A stretch of DNA of 64,000 nucleotides from Girardia tigrina. Lineage: Eukaryota. Below the pieces are notes generated by a model. That model was not told the DNA's origin, ran no database searches, and worked only from the letters and a program-made list of their open reading frames with translations. The translations under genes and the position numbers were made by a program. Positions 2,012 to 2,926 of the stretch are shown in pieces (within the stretch, counting starts at the first letter, position 1; every line of letters starts with the position of its first letter). The stretch is taken from contig MQRK01188773.1 of assembly GCA_001938485.1 (NCBI GenBank), positions 9,025-73,024 of the forward strand, read 5' to 3'.

Positions 2012-2493
2012 CGGGTGTATATACAAGGTCGCTGGTTTCCTAAGGATTCATATTCAGAAGAATCATCAAGAAACGCCAACATCCAACGCCCAGAGAGAAA
2101 AAAACTTGGAAGAAGAGAACAAGGAAGAGCCGACATCAAACCAATCCAATCCTCAGTTGCCGGACGCAACTGTGAGTATGTCAAGGATACAGCCGAACGA
2201 CGATGCCGAAGAGACGCACCTACAATACCGACTGCCAACCGATTACAAGACTGCAAGAGGACAATTTAAGTGCCCATTTCGCTTTTGTTATGCGTCCACC
2301 GTAACAGCCAACGGCATGTACGGCCATGATACCAAGTTCCATGGTTGGTCGTTCGTTACTGGCAAGCCGACTGCTCAGAGGTGAAAGGCCACTGACCCCG
2401 TAGGAGGCCTATCGGGGGGCCATTAAGGACTTTAATTTGGGTGGACCCTCTAAAGAGCCTTAGGCTCAATACCATTACAGAGATGGGAGGCCC
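2012..2493 (+). mobile_element. Insert A: 5'-truncated 3' end of a putative non-LTR retrotransposon with C-terminal C2H2 zinc fingers
   Basis: Bounded by the 11-bp direct repeat ACATCGGAGAG (2001-2011, 2494-2504). Open frame to the stop at 2384 with a truncated finger (C.YK.AGFLRIHIQKNH) and a complete finger (CPFRFC...GMYGHDTKFH). GC-rich, hairpin-forming 3' UTR. Confidence 0.7.
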
Positions 2494-2504
2494 ACATCGG
2501 AGAG

Positions 2505-2597
2505 CAGGGATCACCTGTGTGAGCCAGGCAGACATACTTCTACGTAGTGTCCCTGAGTAACTAGATGGGTTTCGGCCCGTCTAGGCTAAAGTGTCTG
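2505..2597 (+). ncRNA. HDV-like self-cleaving ribozyme
   Basis: P1 CAGGGAT(2505-2511)/GTCCCTG(2549-2555); J1/2 hairpin CCTG/CAGG; P2 CAGACAT(2529-2535)/GTGTCTG(2591-2597); P3 ACT/AGT; L3 TCTACGT; P1.1 CT/AG(2556-2557); P4 CTAGATGGG/CCCGTCTAG with a TTCG-containing loop; J4/2 GCTAAA with putative catalytic C2586. Confidence 0.88.
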
Positions 2598-2926
2598 AAA
2601 GCTAGCCGATATATTGCGGACATAGCCGGCATTATATTGTATTCAGTGATGGGCCAGCAATCCATCAACTAGGCTAAGCTATTAATCTGGGTGAGAAAGC
2701 TGTGGGGATTAATGACCCCGCGGTCGATGGTTGGATTGCATCGTAATGATCTGAGATGAATCAATCCTGGTGAAGGGTTTTGTAATGACGTCGTTGCATT
2801 TTCGAACAGGCGGAACTAAGGCATGGATCCCAACATTGGGGGAGTGCCCGTTGAGAACCATCAGCGTCCCAGGCCTCCTAAAGAGCCTCAAGCTCAATAC
2901 TCGGAAAGGAGTCTAGGTGCAGGTGC
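2505..2926 (+). mobile_element. Insert B: 422-bp non-coding, ribozyme-headed non-autonomous retroelement
   Basis: Bounded by ACATCGGAGAG (2494-2504, 2927-2937); HDV-like fold begins at its first base; shares a 21/23-nt 3' motif with insert A; no credible ORF. Confidence 0.75.

Follow-up and report, generated by a model that had tools for sequence, protein, structure and literature searches.

Two nested inserts in a Penelope-like repeat

The window analysed here is a 64,000-nt stretch of a Girardia tigrina contig, and the features annotated below all lie on its forward strand. Near the start of the window, a Penelope-like host repeat carries two back-to-back inserts, A (2012–2493) and B (2505–2926), bracketed by three copies of an 11-bp target-site duplication. 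The first copy (2001–2011) lies within the YIG codons of what remains of a Penelope-like nuclease, the second (2494–2504) separates A from B, and the third (2927–2937) follows the 3′ end of B. The inserts thus sit inside a GIY-YIG-like frame of the host repeat, whose downstream half occupies 2927–3195 (weak Pfam match, E 0.025, below the cut-off). GTGT at 1987–1990, positions −14 to −11 of the insertion point, forms the upstream half of a target signature that recurs in 28S rDNA. The arms of the host repeat (41–360 and, inverted, 3083–3418; 82–95%) make it a palindrome around the nested inserts, and parts of it appear again at 15878–16047 and 16892–16994. Upstream of A, the same host repeat also holds a decayed mariner-like transposon (538–1877) with terminal inverted repeats and helix-turn-helix matches.

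Insert A is the 5′-truncated 3′ end of a ~3.9-kb LINE encoding an APE endonuclease, a reverse transcriptase (RT) and three C2H2 fingers. Family homology begins at 2021; the nine extra bases before it (2012–2020) resemble the flank at 1984–1992, as though second-strand joining had copied them from the target. An ORF remnant (2022–2402) encodes the last two C2H2 fingers, matches residues 1012–1138 of the LINE protein P0001 at 91%, and carries an early stop (2382–2384) in this copy. Rfam returns only a weak snoRNA match for insert A. Insert B is a full-length copy of a ~415–420-nt family without an ORF; it has private changes at 2891 and 2913–2914 and ends in a 6-nt terminal duplication (2921–2926). 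Contigs from four public runs, three guessed to be RNA and one of undefined type, span A and most of B and are silent on ends, strand and level.

A finger-bearing LINE lineage beside RTE

Copies of A reach upstream to varying lengths, and their single frame encodes APE, RT and three C2H2 fingers. P0001 is a natural 1,145-aa protein (96% to locus L094) containing Exo_endo_phos_2 and RVT_1 domains, and an open frame of 1,241 aa is present at L355. The full-length copy at L094 measures ~3.9 kb, with an HDV-like fold at its 5′ end and no 3′ tail. The LINE head pattern has 922 exact matches, and Rfam HDV-type models give four matches among the heads of eight loci, all below the gathering score. In subfamilies A, A′, C and D, GAGGCCC directly abuts the duplication, without the short tandem-repeat or poly(A) tail by which RTE elements are recognised. 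The idea that A is an R2/NeSL-type deletion derivative, which came from the finger, was ruled out, as the upstream copies encode APE and RT.

We placed the lineage in a quick, midpoint-rooted RT tree of 63 rows, built from 35 of 120 proteins tried together with 30 loci and without named clade references. Rows with fingers cluster together in it (SH-aLRT 100), separate from the RTE-type rows that bear DUF6451. This domain is absent from P0001, P0002, P0003 and P0005, and is present in P0008 and in most RTE-type protein matches. On this tree, the LINE of A appears sister to RTE-type proteins.

An independent view of the 3′ ends comes from 30 long LINE loci retrieved with the distant protein P0005, blind to the motif described below. 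Twenty-one of these reach the end of the ORF: 17 carry the A-type 3′ module, two belong to family G, one to family H, and one lacks the module. The 17 A-type loci show RT identities to P0001 of 51–95% where measured. Family G (two loci, 50% RT identity) retains the hairpin, has different linkers and an altered closing helix, and adds a long arm; its LINE ends in a short T run. The family H locus (48%) was assigned by contig overlap (94% over 1,245 nt), and in it the closing helix is flipped and the hairpin extended; the same overlap led us to drop the idea that H is a short family. The family H LINE seems to have a ~2-kb 3′ UTR holding an internal HDV-like core (L368/L433 and L436).

Short families with a predicted ribozyme head and no ORF

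Copies of B are uniform (407–424 nt) and have sharp ends. No RT match was found within 2505–2926, ARAGORN found no tRNA gene in B, and Rfam detected no tRNA-, 5S- or 7SL-derived head; on the ARAGORN result, B was dropped as a tRNA-headed Pol III SINE. All 49 B-type rows (with some places represented twice; 95 matches exist) run upstream into B, and none runs into a LINE. Conversely, no LINE bearing a B-, B2- or E-type tail was found among the rows examined. In one E2 row, an A-type LINE is stacked ~350 nt upstream.

B resembles the LINE at its two ends. At the 5′ end, the two share a ribozyme core, with a 40-column local match and an equal fold; at the 3′ end, they share a 27-column match with 25 identical positions, together with the terminal GAGG. 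The ~300-nt body of B has no match to the LINE regions compared, namely one A 5′ end and one A tail. Judged by these sequences, B is non-autonomous, and a target signature and duplication size are common to B and the LINEs.

The head of B (2505–2597) is predicted to fold as an HDV-like ribozyme, with P1 (2506–2511/2549–2554), P2 (2530–2535/2591–2596), P3, a 7-nt L3 and a candidate catalytic C at 2586. With P1.1, this head takes the nested double-pseudoknot form that defines HDV-like ribozymes. Among 83 distinct cores, P2 has at least five of six pairs in 79, P3 is complete in 71 and P1 in 44, and the catalytic C in J4/2 is present in 78. The P1.1 partners are C-G in 58 cores, T-A in 19, C-A in six and T-G in none, which amounts to a double change within the pseudoknot. 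The Rfam HDV-type model does not match the window's B copy. Copies of B begin at, or one base ahead of, the predicted cleavage site. Sister short families carry the same head: B2/B3, with 307 matches, and E, with 62 and 79 matches. A second J4/2-like stretch behind a hairpin in the body of B (2609–2682) is perhaps a decayed second ribozyme.

A recurrent motif marks the 3′ ends of elements

The 23-mers at 2450–2472 in A and 2878–2900 in B are identical at 21 of 23 positions, as originally predicted, and differ at 2461/2889 and 2463/2891. Their predicted distances to the 3′ ends are likewise correct for these two copies: 21 nt in A (end at 2493) and 26 nt in B (end at 2926). The latter value belongs to the window copy, but that of the family is 19–20 nt, since 2921–2926 is the 6-nt terminal duplication. 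The same duplication occurs in the B copies at L042 and L133, three in all, and its recurrence suggests re-priming at the 3′ end.

In the genome (G000), 1,901 sites match the motif exactly when its 5-nt middle is left free, against none for the reversed control, and 1,535 match the form with a 6-nt middle. The recurrence of the motif is not due to chance. Across four motif variants, a strict terminus, GAGGNNY-AY within 36 nt of the motif, is found at 25 of 30, 21 of 24, 21 of 30 and 24 of 29 distinct loci; the remaining loci have near-versions of this terminus with one or two changes, all termini having been judged by eye. Among these loci, the motif is neither missing from most copies nor scattered away from 3′ ends. 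The motif is therefore real and marks the 3′ ends of elements, with these 23 nt shared by the ends of at least four LINE subfamilies. An Rfam search with the motif returned no relevant known RNA family.

Fold of the 3′ module

The motif lies within a predicted structured module that ends both inserts. In these elements the module is placed 20–21 nt ahead of 3′ ends without a tail. In A (2448–2482), a closing helix (2448–2451/2479–2482) is followed by the linker AAA, a 5-bp hairpin (2455–2467) and the linker AATA. In B (2875–2911), the closing helix (2875–2879/2907–2911) encloses the same two linkers and a hairpin (2883–2895) whose fifth pair is broken in this copy. The hairpin had been anticipated as GAGC/GCTC; it is present, but with five pairs, GAGCC/GGCTC, and a 3–4-nt loop. 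The claim that both differences between A and B fall in the loop proved incorrect: the change at 2891 breaks the fifth stem pair, and it is private to the window copy, given that 93 of 95 B-type matches keep this C-G pair. Of the two enclosing stems proposed, CTCC/GGAG in B is the covarying closing helix, but CCTC/GAGG in A is a different helix. The counterpart of the B stem in A is CTCT (2448–2451) with AGAG (2479–2482), and it reads TCGT/ACGA in a B3 subfamily.

This internal closing helix is 94.7% paired, with double changes at three of four pairs (33 rows). On LINE and B rows, the junction closed by CCTC/GAGG fares worse, with the terminal helix 72.7% paired and free of double changes and the side arm 58.3% paired; the low terminal score arises partly because the register of this helix shifts by one between LINE and B. 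The shared fold is therefore not taken to be a three-way junction with the terminal GAGG in its closing helix. Such a junction is possible within the LINEs: RNAalifold, given 18 LINE tails and no other rows, chooses the terminal helix of the original prediction over the internal one. The terminal segment of A (2472–2493), which ends in GAGGNNY without a poly(A) or repeat tail, offers alternative or additional pairings (2472–2475/2483–2486 and 2447–2450/2487–2490), and A may carry both sets of pairs in the modelled folds, as a switch or a pseudoknot. The predicted folds of E and G, in which a hairpin occupies the spacer, do contain a true three-way junction. A, B and their relatives thus share a structured module at their 3′ ends, but not with the junction as first drawn. 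As compared by sequence, its common core consists of the closing helix, a 3–4-nt A-rich linker, the hairpin, an AATA-like linker and a variable spacer.

When tails of LINE, B, B2/B3 and E elements (27 rows) are aligned by sequence alone, the hairpin shows double changes at four of five pairs, and slid controls are 16–46% paired; the rows of this set, and of the 33-row closing-helix set, were selected by stem-bearing patterns. In rows chosen instead by whole-element similarity, the complete set of five hairpin pairs is retained by 27 of 30 A rows, 22 of 27 B rows and 23 of 25 E rows. No change occurs in the linkers of A (0 of 240) or B (0 of 216), compared with 10 of 81 in the B loop. The loop, judged by conservation alone, is the most variable part of the module in B (12%), and it differs among LINE subfamilies. 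As a prospective check on newly fetched copies, we looked at those with G for C on the 5′ side of the closing helix: all eight have C opposite, and four of the eight have lost the next closing-helix pair. Independent double changes are few, corresponding to about five to eight subfamily splits.

Folding of single sequences was set aside as proof of the module, the z-scores being too weak: for four tail windows folded alone they range from −1.46 to +0.32, and neither tail is unusually stable. In the window's A copy, an upstream segment competes with the hairpin, whose pair probability is 0.08–0.29. In LINE tails, a segment near the stop codon can pair with the motif (2424–2462 in A); between subfamilies A and D, its sequence shifts in parallel with that of the hairpin loop, and B and E lack the segment. 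This pairing is possibly a translation-linked switch.

Two descriptors, both composed after inspection of the data, match 13 of 18 rows (shuffles 0–1 of 300) and, for the core descriptor, 19 of 31 rows (shuffles 0–3 of 100). The core descriptor fails on family I (L386, L391), L398, L387, L020, both E1 rows, one H row (L399) and two metagenomic 28S relatives, and the window's B copy, which counts twice among these misses, fails both descriptors. Because family I, E1 and others fail the core descriptor, the module as described by sequence is not clade-wide. In the distant metagenomic branch, the 3′ UTRs of L440, L441, L443 and L444 have their own conserved ~45-nt motif, unlike the module here.

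Insertions at a conserved base in 28S rDNA

Duplications of 9–14 bp flank A, B and their relatives. Outside the Penelope class, the sites have in common a signature of GTG at −14 to −12 plus TT^AC. The GTG is present at 4 of 9 sites of LINEs, 17 of 23 of the B lineage and 23 of 33 of E, in sets that contain a few wrong duplication calls and two stray Penelope-type sites. Of 3,144 comparable window sites, 45 carry it by a looser measure. Rfam LSU models match the LINE flanks at four of eight loci, and the 28S site carries the signature exactly. LINEs and their short partners stack at one base of 28S rDNA with an 11-bp duplication.

Among 20 exact matches to the downstream 28S flank, none follows intact 28S; 19 follow a foreign end (A′ LINE two, G one, I three, H-type nine, E3 two, B3 one, unassigned one) and one follows another rDNA-like piece. 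From the upstream flank, 17 of 21 matches enter foreign sequence, including B-type and A-type heads, past a mostly 11-bp duplication, and the other four stop at a contig end or N. One locus reads 28S, B-type, A′, B-type, B-type (L354), and another reads G, E1, G, E3, 28S (L353). Insertions at this base have one orientation and a fixed duplication, as expected of rDNA-specific elements. A majority of copies in rDNA, which is also expected of such elements, is not seen, with 1,901 and 1,535 tails set against 20–21 assembled rDNA junctions, a ratio that is unsure because rDNA is probably collapsed in the assembly. At the 28S site, L483, L484, L485, L487, L492, L498 and L499 show other unassigned 5′ ends, some opening with G-rich runs or 28S-like pieces. 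In the 5′ flank of L355, the upstream 28S piece ends a few hundred bases before the site, a deletion at the 5′ junction.

The same base is used by distant relatives. From 44 metagenomic loci, eight long candidates of the finger group were examined, and two, L443 and L444 (~30% to P0001), end there. Their flanks (89–101 nt) have no Rfam LSU match and are identical at 93 of 101 and 83 of 89 positions to the Rfam-matched flank of L355, on which basis we place them at 28S. At the other six candidates the 28S base was not seen, in several because the contig ends. As the LINE lineage, its partners and these metagenomic relatives end at the 28S base, we infer that the Penelope YIG site in the window is a high-copy look-alike of the 28S site. 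Two further YIG-coding look-alikes of the target lie at 32859–32904 and 42331–42376.

Probable pairing of B with a LINE protein

Taken together, these observations make it likely that the motif is the core of a 3′ module ending A and B, that binding of this module by the LINE protein initiates target-primed reverse transcription (TPRT), and that B borrows a protein of the A lineage. The module is kept with compensatory changes in branches of ~50% RT identity, which points to a protein-recognition element. Mobilisation of B by the protein of the A family, as originally proposed, agrees with a tail that matches the A lineage (A, A′, C and D) and with the finding that none of the 49 B rows continues as a LINE, but "A family" is too narrow. 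The target cannot name the partner of B, because all branches use one target; the partner most likely lies in the A lineage, as only this lineage shares the sequence of B. Within it, subfamilies A, A′, C and D appear from their tails equally eligible, and B copies stack beside each of them. The tail linkers of E (TATA, GACA and TACA) and its long arm resemble those of G, and E may be a hybrid, with its head from a B-like element and its tail from a G-like one. The proposal that A mobilises E through shape alone was weakened once family G was found.

A cycle consistent with these features can be proposed. RNA of B would be read through from rDNA, a host repeat or an upstream element, and the 5′ end would be released by cleavage at its HDV-like head. 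The LINE protein would then hold the 3′ module while its APE domain nicks the target, with the fingers possibly reading the upstream GTGT. First-strand cDNA would start at the base after GAGGNNY, and the following AC would pair with the target, a role otherwise filled by a poly(A) or repeat tail. Dispersed copies, including those at the window's Penelope YIG site, would be insertions at 28S look-alikes.

Sharing of the module by B and the LINEs does not in itself need binding, as both the head and the tail of B are homologous to LINE ends. The module could have been inherited and kept for another RNA task, such as 3′-end formation, stability or the ending of read-through, with a protein that reads only the last bases or is relaxed. 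Lacking poly(A), the A lineage must have some other means of defining or protecting its 3′ end, and the same 28S base is used by very distant relatives that do not have the module. We nevertheless regard this explanation as unlikely: the short families retain the module though their bodies diverge, 3′ junctions are exact and uniform in all families, and unrelated RNA was not seen at these targets among the loci examined. Exchange at the DNA level between stacked neighbours, by gene conversion or template switching and with no RNA function, would account for the shared tail in another way, and A and B do often lie back to back (in the window and at L022, L055, L071, L231 and L354). The identity, however, extends over only ~27 nt, the differences inside and next to this stretch being paired and compensatory, and a double change found in the 307 B2/B3 matches does not occur in the LINE rows examined. 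Such exchange is highly improbable.

A broader form of protein borrowing would let any protein of the clade, including those of G, H and I, mobilise B, with recognition by shape rather than sequence. The target is common to all branches, E combines the ribozyme head of B with a tail of different sequence and the same shape, and B-type and E elements stack with several LINE types. Yet the 23 nt of B are identical to those of the A lineage and unlike those of G, H and I, while the linkers and arm of E are like those of G. E stacks with G in L353 and B with A′ in L354, and this likeness and stacking point to lineage-wise pairs, which leaves recognition by shape across the clade a quite improbable account. 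We thus favour borrowing by B of a protein from the A lineage.

Comparison with known systems

L2 elements end in repeat tails, whereas the A lineage has no terminal repeat. Stringent LINEs are reported to need a 3′ stem–loop bound by the ORF2 protein (PMC4176376). As in the pairs ZfL2-1/ZfL2-2 (PMC4176376) and UnaL2/UnaSINE (PMC1636434), a 3′ stem–loop is common to the LINE and its partner here, and the stem sequence is exchangeable in those pairs. These zebrafish and eel elements belong to the L2 clade, whereas the present lineage is RTE-related and its function is predicted. In ZfL2, specificity resides in the loop (PMC4176376), while the loop of the module here is its most variable part and the linkers are fixed.

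Close parallels to B are the SIDEs, for which a ribozyme head plus a 3′ end is reported to suffice (PMC3414825). Like SIDEs, B combines an HDV-like head with a LINE 3′ end, has no ORF, and uses the 28S site and duplication of its LINE; SIDEs also include head/tail hybrids from different LINEs, as E may be. In contrast to SIDEs, whose partners are R2/R1 elements, the partner of B is a finger-bearing APE LINE near RTE, the 28S site is another one, and there are hundreds of dispersed copies. Bov-A, RTE-N, RTESINE and MAR4 likewise carry the ends of RTE-type LINEs without an ORF or tRNA head (PMC5786205, PMC3747384). Unlike in these, the likeness of B to its LINE is limited to the ribozyme core and a tail of ~27 nt, with the ~300-nt body unmatched, and B has no microsatellite or poly(A) end and has a sequence-specific target. 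The available portion of PMC6765202 contains nothing on RTE heads.

Among rDNA elements, RT1/RT2, R6 and R7 belong to the R1 clade. The R1 site is close to the R2 site, and by Rfam positions the R2 site lies ~400 model positions upstream of the base used here. The RT1/RT2 site lies downstream of R1 and could coincide with the base used here. Unlike members of the R1 clade, the LINE of A has a single ORF with C-terminal C2H2 fingers, and its nearest database neighbours are of RTE type. It resembles R1 in being an APE-type LINE with a fixed rDNA site, a duplication of ~10–14 bp and look-alike off-targets (PMC3849761, PMC3414825), the last being known for rDNA elements (PMC3849761). LIN9_SM of Schmidtea mediterranea is another 28S-specific flatworm LINE, with a junction 3 nt from the base used here (PMC4640811); it belongs to the NeSL clade, has an unrelated, restriction-like endonuclease (RLE) enzyme, inserts in the opposite orientation and ends in a T-rich tail. 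Target-specific LINEs are described as mostly RLE, R1 or Tx1 elements (PMC4640811), and a 2026 review gives RTE-1 targeting as random (PMC13708176). The literature that we searched by title and start of abstract contains no RTE-type 28S element; one may be catalogued in Repbase, outside this search.

We lean, somewhat, towards the finger-bearing RTE sister branch being an unrecognised group of 28S-specific LINEs and a fourth source of specificity beside RLE, R1 and Tx1. Its members would use the same base out to metagenomic relatives of ~30% identity, a structured module read via A-rich linkers would replace the repeat tail, ribozyme-headed partners would be matched to LINE lineages, and targeting of Penelope would be 28S mimicry. 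The target outweighs the tail in importance: a conserved 28S site on a single-ORF APE LINE that also has a compact tail and natural partners mobilised in trans would, if true, offer a new handle on how APE elements acquire specificity, and could be a candidate tool for RNA-templated insertion at a chosen site. Natural variation charts the module one pair at a time and so opens RNA choice by an RTE-related protein to mutational testing in an element without a poly(A) or repeat tail. A tail shared between LINE and SINE is by itself a known design; what is new here is a tail-less, linker-conserved module on a 28S-directed, finger-bearing branch near RTE.
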